This document shows positions 5,761-52,105 of a stretch of 64,000 nucleotides of DNA, piece after piece. The notes beneath the pieces are model-generated. The model saw only the letters and a list, made by a program, of their open reading frames with translations, was not told where the DNA came from and searched no databases. The DNA comes from Dehalococcoidia bacterium (GTDB lineage Bacteria; Chloroflexota; Dehalococcoidia; GIF9; AB-539-J10). The DNA is taken from the NCBI GenBank assembly GCA_046538235.1, contig JBKHJG010000001.1, forward strand, positions 60,581 through 124,580. Direction: 5' to 3'. Position 1 is the first letter of the stretch; every line of letters starts with the position of its first letter. Made by a program: the position numbers and the translations under genes.

Positions 5761-7449
5761 TCACTTCAGTTGCCCGCTGGCCTTCATCTTGCCTATCTCC
5801 TCCTCCCTCAACTGCCGCTTGAAAAGCTTGTCTGTTACGGTCAAAGGCAGCTCCTCGCGGAACTCAACGAACTTGGGCACGGCGTAAGGCGGCAGCTTAG
5901 CCCTGCAATGGCTGATTATCTCCTCGGCAGTTGTTTTCCCTTCATATTCAGGCCTCAGGCTGATGAACGCCTTTATCCGATCACTGCCCGGGCGCTCAAC
6001 GTCGGGTATTCCAATCGCCACGGCATCCGCAACGGCCGGATGCTCGTACAGCACATCATCAACCAACCTCGTATAGACTTTGAGCCCTGAGACGTTCGCC
6101 ATGTCTTTGATGCGATCCGTAATGTAGAAGTAGCCATCATCGTCCATGGTCACCACATCACCCGTGGGCAGCCAGCCATCAACCAGGCCCTTGCCGGCCT
6201 GAGGCCAGTAACCTAACATAACCTGCGGGCCGCGAACCCAGAGTTCGCCTTCCTTCCCCGGGGCAGCCTCTTGACCGGTGTCCAGGTCCACTATCCTGAC
6301 CTCTGTATCCGGGGTCGGCACTCCTATGGAACCGAGCTTTTCGGCAGGCATGAAGCCGATGAGCTTTGAGAATGCCGAGAGGTTGATATGTGTACCTCCG
6401 CTTGTCTCCGACAGCCCGTATGCCTCGGTGATAGGCATGCCGGTCTGCTGCTTAAACCTTTGGGCAATCTCCACCGCCAGCGCTGAGGCACCAGACATGA
6501 ACATGGTGTTTATCCTGCCCAACCCCCTGGTGGCCAACCTGGAATATTGAGTCGGCACACAGGAGCAGAGAAAAGGTCGGTGTCTGGTCAGCATTTCGTA
6601 CAGCATATCGACATCTCTGGGGTCCGGGATCAAGTACATCTTAAGCCCCCAGTGGACGGCAAAGTGCATCATCATATGACCGTACTGATGGAACAGTGCC
6701 ACGGGCATCATTATGGAGGTCTTCCCCCTGACTCCCACCTTGAGGGGTTCCATATACCAGGCAACATGCGTCAGCGCCACGGACCGGTTGTAATGGGTCA
6801 GCATCACGCCTTTGGGCAGCCCGGTGGCACCACCGGTAAAGGGCAGCACAGCCAGGTCCTTCATCGGGTCAATATCAACATCAGGTGGATCGGGGTCATG
6901 GCCCTCGATGAGATCGCGAAACAGGAGGGCGCCGGGCGGCCGTTCCTCCGCTGGCCCTTCCGGGGAGTAATCCGTAAGCGAGGTGACTATCACGTTCTTG
7001 ACTCGCGTCTTGTCCTTTATCGAGTTCACCGCCTCCAGCGACACCTCCGTGCAGACAACCGTTTCCGCCCCGGAGTCACCAATCTCGTACACTAGATCAG
7101 CCGCCTTATGGAGTACGCTGCAGGGGACATGGACGGCCCCCGCCTTCAGTATTCCGAAATCGCCAATGATGAACTGGGGGCAGGTCGGCAGGATGGTGGC
7201 CACTTTGTCTCCTTTGTTGACGCCCAACCCGGCGAGCGCGGTGGCAAATCTATCGGCCTCCTGTTTCAGTTCTGTATAGCTCATCTCGCGTCCCAGATAG
7301 GAGCAGGCGGCCTTACCGGGGAACTCGGCCGCCGCAGCATCGAGAAGGCTGTCAATAGGTATCTTTGGATAAGGCTCTTTGCTCTGCGCAAGCTTGTATG
7401 GCCCCAACTTGTATTGCTTGAGCCAGGGTTTTTCGGCTACTGAAACCAT
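5761..7449 (-). CDS. AMP-forming acyl-CoA synthetase (ANL superfamily)
   Basis: AMP-binding motifs (LPFTGGATGLPKGVMLTH; YGLSETSG; TGDVVTMDDDGYFYITDRIKD). Directly downstream of AOR (3-nt gap). Confidence 0.88.
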   Translation of the reverse strand: MVSVAEKPWLKQYKLGPYKLAQSKEPYPKIPIDSLLDAAAAEFPGKAACSYLGREMSYTELKQEADRFATALAGLGVNKGDKVATILPTCPQFIIGDFGILKAGAVHVPCSVLHKAADLVYEIGDSGAETVVCTEVSLEAVNSIKDKTRVKNVIVTSLTDYSPEGPAEERPPGALLFRDLIEGHDPDPPDVDIDPMKDLAVLPFTGGATGLPKGVMLTHYNRSVALTHVAWYMEPLKVGVRGKTSIMMPVALFHQYGHMMMHFAVHWGLKMYLIPDPRDVDMLYEMLTRHRPFLCSCVPTQYSRLATRGLGRINTMFMSGASALAVEIAQRFKQQTGMPITEAYGLSETSGGTHINLSAFSKLIGFMPAEKLGSIGVPTPDTEVRIVDLDTGQEAAPGKEGELWVRGPQVMLGYWPQAGKGLVDGWLPTGDVVTMDDDGYFYITDRIKDMANVSGLKVYTRLVDDVLYEHPAVADAVAIGIPDVERPGSDRIKAFISLRPEYEGKTTAEEIISHCRAKLPPYAVPKFVEFREELPLTVTDKLFKRQLREEEIGKMKASGQLK

Positions 7450-42657: not shown

Positions 42658-42981
42658 CTATCGGCATGCAATGTCCAACCACTTGAGATAGTCTTCACTG
42701 CCGGCAGCTATGGGCAGGGCGATGATCTCGGGCACCTCATAACTGTGTGTTCTCTTCACCAGTTCCACCACGTCGGGAAACAGCGATCCGTTGGTCTTGA
42801 CTATCAGGAGGCTCTCGCGAGCTGAGTCGAGCCTGCCCTCCCACCGGAAGAGCGAATCCACCCCGGGCACTATGTTGACGCAGGCGGCCTTCCTTTCAGT
42901 GACCAGTAACTCCGCGATTCTGTGAGCTTCTTCCTCGCCACTGGTGGTGATGAGGACAACTATCCTGTCTTCCTCTTTCAT
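42658..42981 (-). CDS. cutA: divalent-cation tolerance protein CutA
   Basis: Typical 107-aa CutA1 fold sequence. Confidence 0.85.
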   Translation of the reverse strand: MKEEDRIVVLITTSGEEEAHRIAELLVTERKAACVNIVPGVDSLFRWEGRLDSARESLLIVKTNGSLFPDVVELVKRTHSYEVPEIIALPIAAGSEDYLKWLDIACR

Positions 42982-43901
42982 CGTTTCGGGTCTATCCCGA
43001 GCATCCTGTCCACCGCTGCCCTTGCGGCAGCCCGGATCTTCTCGGCAACCTTGACCTCAGGGCTCATCTCCTGCAAAGCCAGTAGGACCTTCTCCAGGGT
43101 AATCAGCTTCATATTGGGGCAGATTGCCTGCTCGGAAACAGGGATAAACCTCTTGCCGGGATTCTCCTTATTGAGCCTGTGCACCATGCCGATCTCCGTC
43201 CCCACAATCATCTCCCTGACGTCTTCCCTGTGGGCATATCTACACATCCCGCCGGTGCTGAGAACCTCATCGGCAAGGGCGATGACCTCCGGCCTGCACT
43301 CAGGATGAACAACCAGCCTGGCCTGGGGATATTCCTGCCGTAACGAGCTTATCTTGTCAGGCGTTATCCGGACATGGGTCGGGCAGAAGCCGGGCCACAG
43401 TATCATGTTCCTGCCAGTCTTGCTGGCGACATAGTGCCCCAGATACTGGTCGGGGACAAACAATATCTCCTCAGCATGCAGGCTCTCCACGACGGCAACC
43501 GCATTGGCGGAGGTGCAACATACATCTGATTCGGCCTTGACATCGGCCGAGGAATTAACGTAGCAGACGACTGTCGCCTGCGGGTGCTCATTCTTCCTGT
43601 CCCGCAATTGCTCGGCCGTAATCATATTGGCCATAGGACAGCCGGCATTCACATCGGGAAGCAAGACCACCTTGTCCGGACAGAGGATAGAGGCTGTTTC
43701 CGCCATGAAATGCACCCCGCAGAACACGATCACGCTGGCATCGGTCTGAGCAGCCTTCTGGCTCAATTCCAGGGAATCACCGACGAAGTCGGCTATGTCC
43801 TGGACCTCGCCCAACTGGTAGTTATGGGCAAGGATGACCGCGCCTCTTCTTCCCCTCAGGTCCAGTATTGCCCGTATCAGTTCAGCGTCTCTATTTCCCA
43901 T
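42978..43901 (-). CDS. nadA: quinolinate synthase
   Basis: NadA motifs (ILAHNYQ; conserved Cys ligands for the [4Fe-4S] cluster). Confidence 0.92.
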   Translation of the reverse strand: MGNRDAELIRAILDLRGRRGAVILAHNYQLGEVQDIADFVGDSLELSQKAAQTDASVIVFCGVHFMAETASILCPDKVVLLPDVNAGCPMANMITAEQLRDRKNEHPQATVVCYVNSSADVKAESDVCCTSANAVAVVESLHAEEILFVPDQYLGHYVASKTGRNMILWPGFCPTHVRITPDKISSLRQEYPQARLVVHPECRPEVIALADEVLSTGGMCRYAHREDVREMIVGTEIGMVHRLNKENPGKRFIPVSEQAICPNMKLITLEKVLLALQEMSPEVKVAEKIRAAARAAVDRMLGIDPKR

Positions 43902-44745
43902 CCCTGATTATCCTCCAGTCATGAGTGTAGACATTCATCCTCCGGCCCCTGACGAAGCCGACCAGCGTCACGCCCAAATCAGCAGCCAGCTTGAGCCCCA
44001 GGCTGGTGGGGGCCGACTTAGATATAACTACCGGGACATTCCTTCGGGCTACCTTGACCATCATATCCGAAGAGACCCTGCCGCTGGTGACAACTATGCG
44101 GTCGGCGGTTGCTATGTCATTCAAGATACATTGGCCCAGGATTTTGTCGAGGGCGTTATGCCTGCCTATGTCTTCATCAAATACGAGAACATCCTTCACA
44201 TCGCAGAGGCCGGCACTGTGAACACCGCCGGTTTCCCTGTACAACTGAGAGCGCTGCTGGAATCGCTTCACCAGCGTCAGGATATCAGGTGCTGCTACTG
44301 TAACCCGGGACTCGACCTTCGCCTTACCCTGAACGTCAGCTGCACCATAGAAAGAGGGCCCCCTCCCACATCCTGAAGTGATAACCCTCTTGAATAAGCC
44401 GTCGCCGGCAAAGTCAGTATCGGTTTCAGCCTCTATGCGAACCACCCCTCTCCGGTCATCGACCATTATCTTGTGGATCTCATCCTTGCTCCTGAGGAAT
44501 CCCGCAGAGAACAGAAACCCCACTGCCAGATACTTCAGATTGGCAGGAGAACACAACAAGGTTACAATCTCCCGGTCGTTCAAGATAATCGTAACAGGAA
44601 ATTCGCCGGCCACCGCATCTTCTACCCAACTGGCGGCTTTCCCGGAAAGTCTGAGAGCAGAGACCTTCACTGTCGCATTATCCATTCTCTCCCACCCTGA
44701 CCGGGTCTCCGGCTCTAACAGGTCCACCGCGCAGCACCCTGGCAA
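43891..44745 (-). CDS. fdhD: formate dehydrogenase accessory sulfurtransferase FdhD
   Basis: FdhD cytidine-deaminase-like fold with a catalytic Cys loop (TSGCGRG). Confidence 0.9.
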   Translation of the reverse strand: MPGCCAVDLLEPETRSGWERMDNATVKVSALRLSGKAASWVEDAVAGEFPVTIILNDREIVTLLCSPANLKYLAVGFLFSAGFLRSKDEIHKIMVDDRRGVVRIEAETDTDFAGDGLFKRVITSGCGRGPSFYGAADVQGKAKVESRVTVAAPDILTLVKRFQQRSQLYRETGGVHSAGLCDVKDVLVFDEDIGRHNALDKILGQCILNDIATADRIVVTSGRVSSDMMVKVARRNVPVVISKSAPTSLGLKLAADLGVTLVGFVRGRRMNVYTHDWRIIRDGK

Positions 44746-45121
44746 ATATCCCCTCCTTAGGCATGATGCACCTGCCTATCTGCTTGTAAATAGCGCATCC
44801 GGCGTGGCACTTCTTTCCAATCTGGGTAACCTCAAGGACAATGTCATCTCCGATGTATATCTCCGTGCCCACGGGCAGCGAGGCGAGTTCCACTCCCCGT
44901 GTGGTGAGGTTCTCTGCGAAATCGCCAGGCCCGACCTCAAAGCCCAGCTCTCTTATCTTGTCGATGCTCTCCGCCGCCAACAAACTCACCTGCCGATGGG
45001 TACAGCAATCAGCGTGGGCATCACCTTCAAGGCCGCAGTTCTCCTTAAGGATGCCTTCGGCCACCGGCCTCTTGGTCGTACCCTTCTGTTCGCTCTTACA
45101 GACCGCAATTATCGTGGCCAT
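44678..45121 (-). CDS. MOSC domain-containing protein
   Basis: MOSC beta-barrel motifs with a conserved Cys (KKCHAGCAIY). Start likely the internal Met (MATIIAV); the ORF track extends it to 45259. Confidence 0.65.
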   Translation of the reverse strand: MATIIAVCKSEQKGTTKRPVAEGILKENCGLEGDAHADCCTHRQVSLLAAESIDKIRELGFEVGPGDFAENLTTRGVELASLPVGTEIYIGDDIVLEVTQIGKKCHAGCAIYKQIGRCIMPKEGIFARVLRGGPVRAGDPVRVGENG

Positions 45122-45144
45122 CGAGCCATATTCTACCTTACTTG

Positions 45145-46140
45145 CTATATCAACGAAAAACAGTAGCCCAGAGCCAGAGACATGACACACACGACCACCA
45201 GGTAGATGGCCAGGATCCTGCCGCCGAATTCTTTTCTCAAGACCAGGATAGTTCCCCAACTGGTGATGGGCCCCACCAATAGCAGCACCATTCCCGCACC
45301 GATGCTCATTCCCTGTGACACAAAGGCGTGGACCAGAGGAACACTGGCTGTGGAGCAGATATACATGATCAGGCCGAAACCGAGGCTGAACAGATACCCC
45401 AGCCCCCCGCCGAGATGGACACCGACGAACTCTCCCACGGGGGCCACCGCCGCCACCAGAGCTGCCAGTGCCAGGCCCAGCAGCAACTCGGGCCCGATGT
45501 CCCTCACCATATCCACAAAGGCATATCTCAAGGCATGCTTCAGCCGGTGAGCAACGTTGCGAACCCCTGCCATGTATTCCTCCGGGCTATCTTCAAAGGC
45601 CCTCTGGCAGTGAGGACAGCAGAAGTAATATGTGTTCCCGTGGTATTCGGTCCGTGGCGCTTCCCCCACCTCCACATTCATTCCACAGACCGGGTCGACA
45701 GCCCGCTCTGCCAGGGAGCCCGGGACTATCGCTTTGCCCTCAACCTTGTTTCCAACTAGACCCACAGCTATACCCATGGCTATCACAGCAAAGAATATAA
45801 ATGCGGTGAACTGCGGCCCCAGCAGGCCATAGGTGACCAGAAGGGCAGCGATGGAGGTCGCCGGTGTCGCAACCAGGAAGGCCAGCACCGGTCCCAATCG
45901 CGCCCCCTTCTGGCGCAGGCTCAGGCCCACCGGAAGGGAGCCCAGACAGCAGATGGGAAGGATGGTCCCCACCAGGGTGGAGTAAAGGATCGGCCTGACA
46001 CCCCCTCCGCCGAGACGTCTCTCCACCCACCGTGAGGGCACAAACTCGTGGACCAGTCCGCTGAGGAGAAATCCTATTGTAAGGAAAGGTAGTACCTCAA
46101 CAAGATAGCCCCTGAATACTAGGAGGTACTGGACGATCAA
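45145..46140 (-). CDS. ArsP/COG0701-family permease with an inserted TRASH/YHS metal-binding domain
   Basis: Two TM bundles with a PxCC(x)xS motif (ILPICCLGSLP). The central cytoplasmic loop contains CGMNV...YYFCCPHCQRAF, which is TRASH/YHS-like. Confidence 0.55.
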   Translation of the reverse strand: MIVQYLLVFRGYLVEVLPFLTIGFLLSGLVHEFVPSRWVERRLGGGGVRPILYSTLVGTILPICCLGSLPVGLSLRQKGARLGPVLAFLVATPATSIAALLVTYGLLGPQFTAFIFFAVIAMGIAVGLVGNKVEGKAIVPGSLAERAVDPVCGMNVEVGEAPRTEYHGNTYYFCCPHCQRAFEDSPEEYMAGVRNVAHRLKHALRYAFVDMVRDIGPELLLGLALAALVAAVAPVGEFVGVHLGGGLGYLFSLGFGLIMYICSTASVPLVHAFVSQGMSIGAGMVLLLVGPITSWGTILVLRKEFGGRILAIYLVVVCVMSLALGYCFSLI

Positions 46141-46232
46141 CTATCTCCTCCTGATTCCGGGCCTCGTCAACCGGCCACGTATGGCGCTCCGGTTCTCGGG
46201 TCCGGCAGCCGGATACACTGCAGCCCGGGCTC

Positions 46233-46790
46233 CTAGCGCCCGAGAAACTCCCTCACCTTTTCTTCGCTTTCCCCGAGGTTGATACCGATGAACTCAATCC
46301 CGCCGGCCTTCTCCTCGAAAGCTGCCTGAAGATAGGGCATCTGCATAACACAATAACGGCATCCCAGCGTCCAGAAATTGAGCAGGACCCACTGATCTCT
46401 CAAATCGCTCAGTGTCACCGGCTGACCGCCCACGGTGGCGAGGGTGAAATCAGGCGCCATGTGCCCGGTCTCAGGGGCTACCCCGGGCAGCGCAGACGTG
46501 GCTTCGCTCGCAGTTACTTCATCCAACCACTCGAGCACGTGTTCCTTGCTTCTGAAGGCGCCTGGCCATATGCCACGGATAATCCCGTTTTCGTCGATGA
46601 GCAACGTAGCTGGAACGAACCTTATATTGTAGGCCGGCCCTACCTTGTTGTCTGTATCCAGAGCTATGGTGAAGGTTATCTCTGCTGCCGGAGACTTCGC
46701 ACACCCCGGGGCATACCAGCTTAGCACCATGACGGCAACTACGATCACTACCACCCCTACCGTTATCTGCATTGCTCTTCTTATGCGCAT
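46233..46790 (-). CDS. TlpA/ResA-like thiol:disulfide oxidoreductase with an apparently circularly permuted thioredoxin fold
   Basis: N-terminal TM segment, then FVPATLLIDENGIIRG (normally the C-terminal half of TlpA). This is followed by APDFTL...WTLGCRYC...IGINLGESEEKV (normally the N-terminal half including the CxxC active site). Start at the internal Met, downstream of ccdA; the longer ORF 46233-47204 overlaps ccdA out of frame. Confidence 0.6.
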   Translation of the reverse strand: MRIRRAMQITVGVVVIVVAVMVLSWYAPGCAKSPAAEITFTIALDTDNKVGPAYNIRFVPATLLIDENGIIRGIWPGAFRSKEHVLEWLDEVTASEATSALPGVAPETGHMAPDFTLATVGGQPVTLSDLRDQWVLLNFWTLGCRYCVMQMPYLQAAFEEKAGGIEFIGINLGESEEKVREFLGR

Positions 46791-46804
46791 AACACTTTTC
46801 ACCT

Positions 46805-47488
46805 TTAAGAGAGTAAATCGACTAGACGCTCCAGATAGCCGGTGAACACCACGACGCCCACCGCTATGAGCAGTACGGCACTCACGATGGAGATCGTGTT
46901 TGAGCGGCGGTTCAGCCAGGTGATAACCGGCCCTGCTGAGCCCATGGCCAGCGCGATGCCGATGAAGGGCACGCCCAGCCCCAGAGAATAGGCAAGAAGC
47001 AGGTAGGCCCCCTGCCAGGCGGTCTGACCGCTTGAGGCCAGGGCCAGGATGCCGGCCAGCACAGGACCCACGCAGGGCGTCCACCCTAGGGCAAAGGCGG
47101 CGCCCAGCCCGGTGGAGCGCGCATATCCTGAGCCCTGGCCAAACGAACTCTTTAGGCGCATCTGGTAGTTGAGCCAGGGTATCTTGCGCGAGGCAAGCAA
47201 CCACACTCCGAACAGAACCAGCAGGCCACCGGCTATCTTGTAAAGCAGGTTGACGGGAATCGCGGCGCCGATCAGTCCCGCCGAAGCTCCCAGGCCGGCA
47301 AACACGAGCGCGAAACCTGCCACAAAACTGAGCGAGTGAAACACGATGCGCCGGCGACTGACTTCCCCCATCAACGAGGAAGCACCACTCAGGTTGACCA
47401 CATATACCAGGGCCAGAGGCAACACGCAGGGGGAGAGAAAGGAAAGCACCCCGGCGACAAAAGCAATGCCTACAGATACTTCATACAT
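46805..47488 (-). CDS. ccdA: cytochrome c-type biogenesis / thiol-disulfide transporter CcdA (DsbD-like)
   Basis: Six TM segments with the two conserved Cys motifs (LSPCVLP; GWTPCVGP). Confidence 0.85.
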   Translation of the reverse strand: MYEVSVGIAFVAGVLSFLSPCVLPLALVYVVNLSGASSLMGEVSRRRIVFHSLSFVAGFALVFAGLGASAGLIGAAIPVNLLYKIAGGLLVLFGVWLLASRKIPWLNYQMRLKSSFGQGSGYARSTGLGAAFALGWTPCVGPVLAGILALASSGQTAWQGAYLLLAYSLGLGVPFIGIALAMGSAGPVITWLNRRSNTISIVSAVLLIAVGVVVFTGYLERLVDLLS

Positions 47489-47544
47489 GGATAATCATAG
47501 GCCACTACGCTGCTGACGTCATGGAGTCTCCTGAGTTGTGCGAT

Positions 47545-47928
47545 TCAGTCGATCTCCTTCAGCAGCTCTATGACCTTCTCTTTTATGATGGCGAGCGTCC
47601 GGCGGTAAGTATCTATTTCCCCGCCACATGGATCGGCAATATCCCAGTCTATCCTCCTGGCCCCCGGAATGAGAGGACATTCAACTTCGCAGCCCATACT
47701 GACTGCTATGTCGATAGGTTCCCCGTCCTGGATGGCCTTGGGCTTCCCATGCCAGATGATGCCCTCCTCCCTTAGGACTTCCAGTGCCTTCGGCTCCACC
47801 TGTGAGGCCGGGTTCGTCCCCATGCTCATGAACTCCAGATCGGGGCTCTTGCTCAGTTTCTTGGCCAGCGCCTCCGCCATCTGGCTTCTACATGAGTTCC
47901 CAACGCATATAAAGGCGATCTTCTTCAC
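47545..47928 (-). CDS. arsC: arsenate reductase, thioredoxin-coupled LMW-PTP type (ArsC)
   Basis: P-loop CVGNSCRSQMAEA and downstream Cys pair (GCEVECP) as in Bacillus-type ArsC. Confidence 0.7.
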   Translation of the reverse strand: MKKIAFICVGNSCRSQMAEALAKKLSKSPDLEFMSMGTNPASQVEPKALEVLREEGIIWHGKPKAIQDGEPIDIAVSMGCEVECPLIPGARRIDWDIADPCGGEIDTYRRTLAIIKEKVIELLKEID

Positions 47929-48061
47929 TTTGCGGTCAAGGTCTTCTCAGCTTCTCTGCCGCAGCCAGGATCTTTTTTCGTCCCGGCCGTCGGCGGTCGT
48001 ATACGAACCGCCCGGGGAGATCTGCCACGCACCGCCATAACCTCCTGGCTCAGTGTGGCAG

Positions 48062-49228
48062 TCATCTCCGGCCCTTCAATAGGGGCGACATCTCTCTCAA
48101 CCTGGCCACAACCCGGGACAGAACCTCCAGGACCCTCTCGACATCTTGCTCGCTGTTTTCCCGCCCCAGGCTGAACCTCAGCGATCCATGGGCCTGCTCC
48201 GGCGAAAGGCCCATCGCCAGAAGAGCATGAGAAGGTTCAAGACTTGCTGAGCTACAGGCTGAACCGGTAGAGGCAGAGATACCGTCCAGATCAAGGTTCA
48301 GGAGCAAGGATTCCCCTTCCACAAAACCAACGCTGACATTGATATTGTTGGGCAGCCTTGTGGTGGGATGCCCGTTCAAACGAATGTGGTCCATCCTTTC
48401 CAGGATACCTTTAATCAGCCTGTCCCGAAGACCGCGCAAGCGCGCCCCTTCCTCGGCCATATCCTGCTGAGCAAGCTCCACCGCTTTGCCAAAGCCCACG
48501 ATGCCGGGGACATTCTCTGTCCCGGCTCTGCGCCTGTTCTCCTGCTCCCCTCCCTGCATTAGAGGCACCAGAACGGTGCCCTTCCTGACATACAACGCCC
48601 CCACTCCCTTGGGCCCATATAACTTGTGCGCCGACATTGATAGCAGGTCTACCTTGAGCTCACACACGTCCACCGGAATATGTCCCACGGTCTGGACGGC
48701 ATCGCTGTGAAAACAGACGCCGGCCTGTTCAGCAATTCTGCCTATTTCTGCAACGGGCTCTATGGTGCCCACTTCATTGCTGGCATGCATGACCGATATG
48801 AGGATGGTCTTATCGGTGATAGCCTTGCTTACATCGTGAGGGTCAACCAGCCCGTACTCATCAACGGGTAGGTAGGTTATCTCGAATCCCCGCTTCTCCA
48901 GGAACCTGGCCGACTCCAGCACGGCGTGGTGTTCAATGGGCGTGGTGATGATGTGATTGCCCTTATGCCCTCTGGCATAGGCAACGCCCTTCAGCGCAGC
49001 GTTGTCCGCCTCCGTTCCCCCACCTGTGAAGACGATCTCCTCGCTCCGGGCGCCGATGAGCTTTGCCACCCTCATCCTTGCCTCCTCCACCGCCGCTCTT
49101 GCCTCCTGGCCATAGGAATGAATGCTTGAAGGATTGCCAAAAGCATCGCTGAAATAGGGAAGCATAGCCTTCACCACCTCAGGATGTGTCGGGGTAGTAG
49201 CGGCATGGTCCAGATATATTCTACTCAT
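48062..49228 (-). CDS. iscS: cysteine desulfurase (NifS/IscS family)
   Basis: PLP-lysine motif ([10 protein letters not shown]) and active-site Cys loop (SSGSAC). Start at the internal Met ([13 protein letters not shown]); the ORF track extends it to 49345. Confidence 0.9.
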
Positions 49229-49354
49229 ATCCTGCCTTTGTGCCTGCAAAGCAGGGCCTGCAACGGGCCCAACGTCTCCGCGACCAGCCAGTATAGCACG
49301 GTTGCTGCCCGGGTCCCCAAGCCCAGTCTGTGAATTTCCTATCAAGTATCTTTC

Positions 49355-52105
49355 CTAGCCTTGGGAGCCATGGCCCCGGGGCGCTTCTTTCAGATATTTG
49401 CCGGGCTCTTGATCGAAGGCCTTCTTGCAGCCCAGGGCGCAGAAGTAGTAGGTCTGGCCTCCATAGTCCGATGTTGCGGCTGCCTTCTTCCTATCGACCT
49501 GCATGCCACAAACGGGGTCTTTCGCCAACCTGCCACTGCTTTTCTGTTCTTGAGTGGCACCGCCTCCACCAAGCACAAAACGCCTAAGCCTTCCTGCCAT
49601 CTCGTTCACCTCCTTTACCGTCTTTATCCCTTGCAAGCGTGCACGACCGGCCCGCGTCCCCGACTGGTGCCAGCCGGGCTCAACCTTGGTCTTCTTCAGG
49701 CGCAGGGAATTGGTGACTACATTGAGAGAGCTTGCGGTCATGGCCGCCATCCCGACCATGGGGTGTAGCAGTCCCATCACCGCCAAAGGAATGGCCAGCC
49801 CGTTGTATACCCAGGCGAAGAAGTAGTTCTGCTTGATTTTCCTGAAGGTAGCCCGAGAGAGATTTATCGCGGTAACGACAGCGCTCAGCTCTCCGCTCAC
49901 CAGAGTAATGTCGGACGATTCAATGGCGATGTCGGTCCCGGTCCCTATCGCTATACCCACGTTGGCCTGGGTCAGGGCGGGAGCATCATTGATGCCATCG
50001 CCCACCATAGCCACCATCCCCACCTGTTCCTGCAGGCGCCGGATCTCGGCTACCTTGTCCTGGGGCAGGACCTCAGCCAGCACACGGGTGATTCCCACCT
50101 TTCTGGCAATGGCAGCCGCGGTCCTCTGGTTGTCGCCGCTCATTATCGCCGTCTCCAGCCCCATCTCCTTCAATTCGGCTATGGCCCGTGCTGAATCGTT
50201 CTTCAGGGTATCCGCCACGGCAATGATACCTGCTATCCTGCCATCAACCGCTATCAGCATCGCGGTCTTGGCTTCATTCTCCAGTTCAGCAAGCCTCTTC
50301 TCAAGCCTACTGAAGCTTATCTGCGATTCCATCATCAGTCTCTGGTTTCCCACCAGGACCCGTTTGCCATCCACCTTGCCCCTTATTCCTCTGCCAGTGA
50401 CGGCTTCGAGCCCCTCCACATTCGTGAGATGAAGTCCCCGCTCCCTGGCTTCTGAGACAATGGCCCGGCCCAGCGGATGCTCCGAGCCCTGCTCCAGCCC
50501 TGCGGCAAGGAAGAGGACCTCCTTCTCCTCAAACTCGCTGTCGGTGACGATCTCGGTAACCCCCGGCCTACCTCTGGTGATCGTCCCCGTCTTGTCAAAG
50601 ACAATGGTGTGCACCTCATTCATAGTCTGAAGGGCCTCTCCCCGGCGAAACAGGATCCCTCTCTCAGCACCCATACCGCTGCCCACCATCAATGCTGTGG
50701 GCGTGCCCAGGCCCAGAGCGCAGGGGCAGCTTATGACCAGCACGGCGATGGCGGCAAGAATGGCCAGCGTAACGGCCCCCAGGTCAGGGTTTACCCAGGG
50801 AAGAAACGAGGCGCCCCAGGTGATGATTCTCATGAAGAAGCCGGGAAAGACCAGCCAGCTGACACCGGTCAGCAGCGCAATCCCCAACACCGCGGGCACC
50901 ATGTAGCTGGTTACCCTGTCGGCGAACTCCTGAATGGGGACCTTGGATCCCTGGCACTCTTCGACCAGCTTGACCACCTGAGATAAGAAGGTATCCCTGC
51001 CTATCTTGGTCGCCTCTATCTTGAGCAGGCCCTGCTGATTTATGGTGGCACCGATGACGTTATCCCCTGCTTGCTTGTTCACCGGCATTGACTCGCCGGT
51101 GGCCATAGACTCGTCGACGGTACTTTGCCCTTCTACTATCGCTCCATCGGTGGGGATCTTCTCGCCCGGCCTGACGACCATGATATCTCCCACCCTGACC
51201 TCCTCAATGTCTATCTCCTTCTCTCCGCCATCCACCAGGATGCGGGCGGTCCTGGCCCCCAGTTGCAGCAACTTCTTGATCGCCTGAGATGCCCGACCTT
51301 TGGCCCTGATTTCCAGGAATCTGCCCAGCAGGTGGAAGGAGACAATACCCATGGCCATCTCGATGAAGCTCGGCCCGCCCCAGATGAGTGCGCCTATGCC
51401 CATGAAATATGGTGGCACCGAACCGAGAGAGATGAGAACATCCATATTGGCCCGGCCGTGGCGTATCGCCCTCCAGGAGGCCTGATGAGTGGGCCAGCCG
51501 GCCACGAACACCACCGGAAAACCAAGCAGGGCGATGATCAGCATATACCCGGGAATGGGGACAATCATGGATAGAATCATCAGGGTCCAGCCCACGCCGG
51601 ACGGAATGATGGCAAAGACAAACCGCCTCTTCGCCATCTGAACCTTGAGTACATCCCGGTCAACCTTGTCCTCTTCTTGCTCACCTGCCACTGAATAGCC
51701 GGCCGACTCCACGGCCCGCTTGAAATCGGTCATACTGGCCTCGCCCCTCAAGTAGGCAACAGTCGCCTTTTCACTGGCTAGATTGACGTTAGCCGATATT
51801 ACCCCCGGCACCCCGGCCAGTGCTTTCTCAACATTGGCCACACAGGAGGCGCAAGTCATGCCGCCCACCCTGAAGGTCGTTTTCTCCAGTCCCACACCAT
51901 ATCCGGCGTCGGAGACGGCATCAACCACCTTCCTGATATCTACCCGGCCCGGGTCGTATTCCACAGACACGCTTTCGCTGGCGACGTTGACACTGACCCG
52001 CAATATTCCGGATAGCCCGGCCAGCCCGTTCTCGATGACGGCGGCGCAGGAGGCACAGGTCATACCCGTGACCGGGAGGGTTATTTTCCTGGTTCCCTTA
52101 GACAT
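49355..52105 (-). CDS. copA: copper-translocating P1B-type ATPase with two N-terminal HMA domains and a C-terminal TRASH/YHS domain
   Basis: Two GMTCASC motifs, TM CPC motif (SCPCALG), DKTGT phosphorylation site, and C-terminal CGMQV...[12 protein letters not shown]. Confidence 0.93.

Follow-up and report, generated by a model that had tools for sequence, protein, structure and literature searches.

A circularly permuted TlpA/ResA-like protein is encoded behind ccdA

The window analysed here is a 64,000-nt stretch of contig JBKHJG010000001.1 from a Dehalococcoidia bacterium. On its minus strand, at 46233..46790, an open reading frame (ORF) encodes a TlpA/ResA-like thiol-disulfide oxidoreductase of 185 aa, as assigned by translation, Pfam and a phmmer search against the PDB. 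The TlpA/ResA fold is genuinely circularly permuted in its domain, and the new termini fall in the alpha2/beta5 loop. The protein is very probably an anchored, outward-facing oxidoreductase of the TlpA/ResA/DsbE type, in which a permuted, duplication-derived domain is fed by CcdA. The N-in anchor, the membership of the family at the sequence level, the constraint on the catalytic residues and the strict gene partnership with ccdA are the parts of this reading that the analysis shows. The translation (MRIRRAMQITVGVVVIVVAVMVLSWYAPGCAKSPAAEITFTIALDTDNKVGPAYNIRFVPATLLIDENGIIRGIWPGAFRSKEHVLEWLDEVTASEATSALPGVAPETGHMAPDFTLATVGGQPVTLSDLRDQWVLLNFWTLGCRYCVMQMPYLQAAFEEKAGGIEFIGINLGESEEKVREFLGR) is identical to protein P0001, which is named 'redoxin domain-containing protein [Dehalococcoidia bacterium]' at NCBI.

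A first-pass annotation made from the sequence had proposed that the two halves of the domain are swapped, and the Pfam and ResA alignments place them in the reversed order, as claimed. The best matches among PDB sequences are ResA chains (phmmer, E=2.8e-17). Residues 109-183, the half that carries the CxxC, align to residues 3-78 of Bacillus subtilis ResA (49 bits), and residues 38-79, the cis-Pro half, to ResA 83-124 (15.7 bits). The Pfam families AhpC-TSA (E=3.4e-22) and Redoxin (E=7.4e-18), both exceeding their gathering scores, match residues 109-185 with the first ~80 positions of their profiles, while Thioredoxin_2 matches residues 33-86 with positions 53-101 of 104. Neither Pfam nor phmmer restores the canonical order, the outcome that the annotation had named as decisive against its claim. 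A collinear match over the whole domain was not obtained: two reversed stretches were found, and NF002854, the NCBIfam model for ResA, scores 87.2 bits against a cutoff of 170. The canonical relative P0047 is collinear with NF002854 over 2-174, yet it also stays below this cutoff with 101.9 bits. The window protein is homologous to the TlpA/ResA family and nevertheless breaks the collinearity that the family models assume.

The chain begins with a membrane anchor (residues 4-26, 46713..46781), preceded by the positively charged MRIRR; the anchored N-terminus of the annotation corresponds to helix 4-26 in an AlphaFold2 model. A flexible tether follows (residues 27-38, within 46233..46790; pLDDT, the predicted local distance difference test, below 50). 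A lipobox at PGC was considered and rejected, as Cys30 is not kept across the family. The canonical C-terminal half (residues 38-94, 46509..46679; ResA match and AlphaFold2) comes next and comprises beta5 (FTIAL), a short helix, the cis-Pro strand, a further beta strand and the last helix. The codon of Pro60 (46611..46613) encodes the equivalent of the conserved cis-proline of the thioredoxin fold; it is invariant in 46 of 46 family clusters and aligns to L-P-T in ResA. The linker (residues 95-110, 46461..46508) leads from the old C-terminus to the old N-terminus, as seen by comparison with P0047. With about 16-20 aa between the swapped halves, it agrees with the ~20 aa first proposed. The canonical N-terminal half (residues 111-185, 46236..46460) then provides the beta hairpin, beta3, the CxxC helix, beta4 and helix alpha2. 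It is closed by a TAG stop codon (46233-46235). The active site C144-R-Y-C147 lies at 46350..46361, and within FWTLGCRYC (46350-46370) a Gly replaces the usual Trp before the first cysteine. The CRYC dipeptide was correctly read in the annotation and is refined here to one of many variants in the clade: both cysteines are invariant in the family and the middle dipeptide is variable. The protein ends in ...EKVREFLGR at the point where canonical proteins run on into ...ITFTIALD, which confirms that the new termini lie at the natural join.

Predicted structure

An AlphaFold2 model built with the family alignment reached a mean pLDDT of 84 and a predicted template modelling score (pTM) of 0.74, with 85-96 over the domain blocks. 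Its first part consists of helix 4-26, a disordered stretch (27-38), strand 41-45, helix 50-53, strands 61-65 and 70-76, and helix 82-94. After the linker come strand 116-119, helix 127-130, strand 134-140, helix 145-161 with the CxxC at its start, strand 165-172 and helix 176-183. The comparison with ResA suggested in the annotation was made on this model by the order of its elements, and every secondary-structure element of ResA is found in it, in permuted order. In the model of canonical P0047, obtained with the same protocol (pLDDT 90), hairpin, beta strand, CxxC helix, beta strand and helix are followed by beta-helix-beta-beta-helix. The elements 41-45, 50-53, 61-65, 70-76 and 82-94 of the window protein correspond to strand 124-128, helix 132-136, strands 144-148 and 153-159 and helix 165-180 of P0047. 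The CxxC at a helix start and the cis-Pro loop are both present in the model of the window protein, and C144, C147 and P60 are the invariant residues at these sites. No natural permuted TlpA-like chain was found in the PDB search; the window protein matched the engineered circularly permuted DsbA (1un2) over 96 aa.

Conservation and selection in the permuted family

A family search covering 5.8 billion proteins yielded 46 protein clusters (52-100% identity, full-length coverage, about 175-206 aa) with the same permuted architecture, as the annotation had anticipated for related genomes. All 46 have the cis-Pro motif near residue 59 and the CxxC near residue 144. NCBI metagenome-assembled genomes under the name Dehalococcoidia are among their sources, next to assemblies from JGI, ENA and Logan, and their public labels are 'redoxin domain-containing', 'peroxiredoxin' or 'hypothetical'. 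Invariant positions comprise C144, C147, P60 and 22 others, and the motif FW..C..C...P.LQ is kept around the active site. Most members have TTWC at the first cysteine, unlike the LGC of the window protein. The CxxC dipeptide occurs in 17 forms in the permuted clade versus CPAC in the nearest canonical relatives.

Pairwise ratios of nonsynonymous to synonymous substitution rates (dN/dS), were computed from 15 gene sequences. The CxxC half has a value of 0.19, the cis-Pro half one of 0.33 and the linker one of 0.35; the mature domain as a whole is at about 0.24. The range of sources and this purifying selection argue against mis-assembly, which the annotation had raised as a possible refutation. 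The permuted family is real but narrow. In a profile search of 1.84 billion representatives at 50% identity, one full-length permuted representative (P0022) and one fragment were recovered. A scan of genome contigs with the family alignment gave 80 loci among the matches listed, all of canonical order, and is uninformative on the spread of the permuted form.

Genomic context

The ccdA gene (46805..47488, minus strand; DsbD_TM family, Pfam PF02683, E=7.9e-15), the presumed membrane electron donor, lies directly upstream. Its stop codon (46805-46807) is separated from the permuted tlpA by a 14-nt spacer that holds a Shine-Dalgarno-like AGGTGA (46799..46804), 8 nt 5' of the ATG (46790). In every locus with enough upstream sequence, the permuted gene starts 11-16 nt behind ccdA. 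Besides the window, ccdA is directly upstream in L001/L002 (P0030), L087 (P0046), L088 (P0014) and L089 (P0028), and in 12 of 14 metagenome loci, the remaining two being without upstream sequence. This retained adjacency supports the annotated partnership with CcdA. Both genes are probably co-transcribed; no terminator-like site was seen between them in a terminator/promoter scan that was itself uninformative. An Rfam scan of 44000-49500 gave no match.

The order at the locus in most relatives is Cu-type P-ATPase, NifS, low-molecular-weight (LMW) phosphatase/ArsC-like protein, 4Fe-4S protein, CcdA, TlpA, NifU, MnmA, methyltransferase, ArsP_1/YHS permease, MOSC, FdhD and NadA. Locus L088 (P0014) is exceptional in that its neighbours differ beyond the ccdA-tlpA pair. 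Within 42658-52105, the window holds the Cu-type P-ATPase (49355-52105), NifS, the LMW phosphatase/ArsC-like protein, CcdA, TlpA, the ArsP/YHS permease, MOSC, FdhD, NadA and CutA1. Relatives have a Fer4 (4Fe-4S) gene ahead of ccdA and a NifU-MnmA-methyltransferase block behind tlpA; both are missing from the window. The ArsP_1-family permease (45145-46140, minus strand) has an internal YHS/TRASH metal-binding domain at residues ~148-192 and is found beside ccdA-tlpA in relatives too.

Canonical proteins P0047 (L003) and P0054 (L006) are encoded in an identical NifS-(LMWPc)-Fer4-CcdA-[TlpA]-NifU-MnmA-methyltransferase slot, and each of their halves is 50-67% identical to the window protein. Because of the shared slot and this identity, permuted and canonical genes are regarded as positional orthologs.

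Probable origin by duplication and truncation

The signal anchor is common to P0047 and the permuted proteins. The permuted linker, ...TSSEAxxPLxG-VAPxVGH, equals the canonical C-terminal tail ...TSSGTTPPEG joined to the canonical N-terminal lead VAPRIGH of P0047, and both new chain ends map to one junction of the canonical sequence, ...EHIT|ADIAFT..., in the alpha2/beta5 loop. Swapped homology together with such a linker, as required by the model of permutation by duplication, is therefore present in the comparison with P0047 and ResA. Partly duplicated intermediates are a further expectation of this model (PMC3320104). Dozens of tandem multi-TlpA-domain proteins are among the top matches, so that duplicated precursors are evidently common in nature.

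Further loci came from scanning metagenomes with a DNA pattern, and the 3' flank of every locus was examined. At L098, a P0041-like gene ends in ...HIAGDE, and S-A-I-A-L-D... stands directly behind the stop, with ...ATCAGATACCTTCCCACCACC (I-R-Y-L-P-T-T) further on. This flank matches a DNA profile of the cis-Pro half (nhmmer, E=2.8e-12, 36.6 bits), with profile positions 17-109 on flank positions 8-96, the register expected of a second copy that was once in frame. L087 (P0046) and L088 (P0014) carry shorter, more decayed copies of the second C-terminal half behind the stop; their alignment scores of 17.5 and 17.0 compare with a shuffle null of 7.4 +/- 1.3 and were reached by none of 2000 shuffles. 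The TAG that ends the gene in other family members is bypassed at L088, where GAGGGGG contains one additional G. On the opposite strand, tRNA-Arg(cct) and tRNA-Ala(cgc) (L088 6605-6768) abut and truncate the remnant. The 3' flanks of the main clade gave no nhmmer match as C-half remnants after one iteration, and individual shuffle tests were not significant.

The remnants at L098, L087 and L088, and at the independent locus L104 described below, uphold the tandem duplication and truncation put forward in the annotation. Such an origin is shown for these relatives; for the window gene itself, which has no significant remnant of this kind, it is inferred. Duplication would have placed another copy of the cis-Pro half downstream of the CxxC half. 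The CxxC half that originally stood at the N-terminus would have been lost or never duplicated, and a stop or frameshift at the alpha2/beta5 loop would have cut off the second cis-Pro half. The N-terminal anchor has been kept here, so the model of permutation by duplication needs an internal deletion or insertion instead of a new start codon.

Independent permutations at the same loop

In the profile search, two further single-domain proteins, P0197 (193 aa, WCPPC) and P0220 (189 aa, RCPPC), matched collinearly over their full length. Each stands alone as permuted: its many canonical relatives share 76-88% identity with it in the CxxC half. Both are encoded directly behind a ccdA-like gene and are cut at the alpha2/beta5 loop. 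The P0197 gene (L104, contig JAZHBU014388882.1) ends in ...EEVLQFIQ, and its stop is followed by GGYSWAFVLDS, a frameshift and ...GDVTANYKVTTIPVPTSFFIDREGIIQAVNIGAMTKRTM. Read across and past the stop, the sequence is ...FIQ-stop-GGYSWAFVLDS..IPVPTSFFIDREGIIQAVNIGAMTKR. A nearly intact second cis-Pro half at L104 1512-1672 is thus disabled by the stop, the frameshift and small indels, and residues 49-192 of canonical P0276 are collinear across the P0197 stop codon (E=7e-63). The permutation of P0197 is apparently recent. The ccdA upstream of P0197 also looks frameshifted.

P0220 (L105 255-824; JGI 3300001533, contig MLSed_10153473, 971 nt) has clean ends, and no cis-Pro-half remnant was found behind it. 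In-frame fusion to the anchor and the lesions of the pseudo-half argue that the permutations of P0197 and P0220 are real, though each comes from one short contig and could be a mis-assembly.

Canonical and permuted order at the same locus

In neighbour-joining bootstrap analysis, the permuted family and five canonical proteins (P0047, P0051, P0053, P0054 and P0055) form a clade in 193 of 200 replicates, and the permuted proteins alone are monophyletic in 1 of 200. Trees of each half are no better resolved than the tree of the whole domain; all are too poorly resolved to choose between a single origin and a reversion. Neighbouring genes do not separate canonical from permuted genomes either. 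The closest pair of CcdA proteins is L001 (permuted) and L003 (canonical) with 83%, and the largest distances generally involve L087 (permuted).

The last two codons, the stop and more than 120 nt of 3' flank are common to P0047 and main-clade permuted genes (L003 vs L001, both 6556-6690). The homology of the P0047 flank to the main-clade permuted flanks runs from the shared GAGGGGTAG onward (nhmmer, E=2.8e-14), and the P0047/main-clade flank is homologous to the cis-Pro-half remnant of L088 (E=5.8e-4). A consensus built from this flank family falls on the start of the cis-Pro half in the expected register (22 of 29 nt), but in a free search this is not significant, as 453 of 5000 shuffles were as good.

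Because of this kinship with permuted genes and the L088 remnant, the canonical order may be secondary, through reversion or because a C-N-C intermediate was resolved differently. An exchange of alleles between lineages is another possibility. As a tentative reading that is less likely than not, tlpA in this Dehalococcoidia clade could have changed its chain order at least twice without leaving the locus, through a cis-Pro-CxxC-cis-Pro intermediate that is foldable either way, with the canonical genes being secondary. If so, the alpha2/beta5 loop of TlpA would, together with P0197 and P0220, be a natural hotspot for topology change, and genomes would here, as rarely happens, document all stages of permutation by duplication.

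Proposed function and alternative explanations

The chain order of anchor, short tether, cis-Pro half, a linker of ~16 aa made of the old C-terminal tail and the old N-terminal lead, and CxxC half would allow the two halves to pack into an ordinary fold, with the CxxC predicted beside the cis-Pro loop. CcdA, encoded 14 nt upstream, would take reducing equivalents from thioredoxin in the cytoplasm and pass them through the membrane to C144/C147. The known pairing of ResA, TlpA and StoA with CcdA is the basis for this route. The reduced permuted protein would then reduce disulfides in one or more extracytoplasmic clients. No ORF of at least 100 aa with a CcsA WWD motif or a CxxCH motif was found in the 64-kb window; the protein is therefore not filed as a ResA of cytochrome c maturation and is probably not one. 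A TlpA-like role in keeping metal-binding cysteines reduced is speculation; it is compatible with the locus, which is rich in copper/metal genes (P-ATPase, YHS, CutA1) and sulfur-trafficking genes.

Several points weigh against the reading as a CcdA-fed oxidoreductase of duplication origin. Its predicted redox activity and the putative partnership with CcdA are derived from homology and synteny. The Trp before the first cysteine is replaced (LGC for WC) and the CxxC dipeptide is unusually variable in the clade, which could mean an altered redox function. Mean pLDDT exceeded 70 in only two of five AlphaFold2 models, and native packing of the halves is a prediction drawn from model confidence and element order. 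In the window, the 3' intergenic flank (46141..46232, minus strand) could hold a far-decayed second C-terminal half; the shuffle test found no significant remnant there, with 92 of 2000 shuffles matching or beating its score.

An alternative is that the protein folds as proposed and has taken up a changed job, such as that of a thiol oxidase or isomerase or in copper/metal handling, and is no longer a CcdA-dependent reductase. The 17 dipeptides in place of CPAC, the Gly before the first cysteine, the Cu-type P-ATPase, YHS-domain proteins and CutA1 at the locus, and the different point at which the membrane tether enters the domain all speak for such a change. The adjacency to ccdA is strictly retained, however, the cis-Pro, both cysteines and the FW..C..C...P.LQ motif are conserved, and canonical orthologs occupy the same slot, so a changed job is considered unlikely. 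A quite improbable explanation concerns the fold: the chain might form no monomer, and its cis-Pro half might pair with the CxxC half of another chain in a domain-swapped dimer or oligomer. Domain swapping is possible in circular permutants and in duplication intermediates, and three of the five AlphaFold2 models are low (mean pLDDT 53-63). The best monomer model, on the other hand, is compact and confident over both halves and the linker (blocks 85-96), and linker length does not vary within the family, with some constraint on the linker (dN/dS 0.35).

Pseudogene fragments adjoin related genes, and the ORF might accordingly be a functionless, decaying remnant of the rearrangement. This is very improbable and already contradicted by an ORF that is intact in 46 clusters, by dN/dS values of 0.19-0.35 in all parts of the domain and by invariant catalytic residues; stops and frameshifts are, by contrast, carried by the adjacent remnants. 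A mis-join over a tandem repeat would also yield the permuted order, so that collapsed or mis-joined tlpA copies could mimic an ORF that is absent from the organism, and the independent cases P0197 and P0220 are one cluster each on a short contig. Identical junctions recur in the 46 clusters on contigs of up to 323 kb, however, with divergence down to 52% identity at a dN/dS of 0.24. The fusion to the signal anchor is in frame, and a decayed, frameshifted remnant behind the stop is not expected from a mis-join. For the permuted family, the probability of an assembly artefact is negligible and this explanation is effectively refuted.

Relation to known systems

The best sequence and structure matches of the permuted oxidoreductase are ResA (B. 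subtilis), TlpA (Bradyrhizobium) and DsbE/CcmG, which are thioredoxin-like reductases anchored in the membrane and active outside the cytoplasm. It shares with ResA, TlpA and DsbE the N-terminal anchor, the CxxC at a helix start, the cis-Pro loop and the gene position beside ccdA, as well as, by prediction, the N-terminal beta hairpin and the central alpha/beta insert. It differs from them in that the halves are swapped, that family hidden Markov models (HMMs) match in two reversed pieces and that the anchor leads into beta5 and not into the hairpin. Unlike for ResA, genes for ResB/ResC (CcsBA) and c-type cytochromes were not found in the window. P0047 and P0054 resemble the window protein in locus, type of signal anchor and the identity of each half; in contrast to it, they have the N-terminal half before the C-terminal half and the active site CPAC. 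The C-terminal tail of P0047 matches the first part of the permuted linker. Compared with the engineered permuted DsbA, whose structure has been solved, the window protein is natural, conserved and a member of the TlpA family.

The thioredoxin-like fold includes circular permutations between distant families (PMC3091736). No report linking circular permutation with TlpA, ResA, CcmG or DsbE was found in the searchable literature, where an earlier report in a subscription paper is possible. TlpA/ResA are textbook enzymes of the thioredoxin fold, and natural circular permutants are seldom found together with close canonical orthologs. The matched pair of canonical and permuted proteins, at the same locus and with 50-67% identity per half, offers a test of how connectivity and tether affect folding, redox potential and the hand-off from CcdA. 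Pseudo-halves behind the stop, at three family loci and in one independent case, are direct genomic evidence for duplication and truncation. Matches of HMMs in reversed pieces lead to generic pipeline labels only, and architecture-aware searches are needed for such variants. The main value of the permuted family lies in protein evolution and in structure-function work on the thioredoxin fold.

Tandem two-domain TlpA proteins (P0048, P0050, P0052, P0121 and P0127) are collinear with the window protein over the junction between the C-terminal half of domain 1 and the N-terminal half of domain 2. The alignment shows 41% identity over 77% of the query, and the linker motif VAPEIG is similar. Unlike the window protein, they have full double domains and another gene context, and their relationship is more remote; they resemble the intermediate by analogy and are not the ancestor. 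One of them, P0052, is encoded on a Chloroflexi-type contig (L004 2455-6900) together with a thioredoxin, CcdA, a single TlpA and a 541-aa fn3/Redoxin fusion, a cluster that shows a local expansion of TlpA domains.

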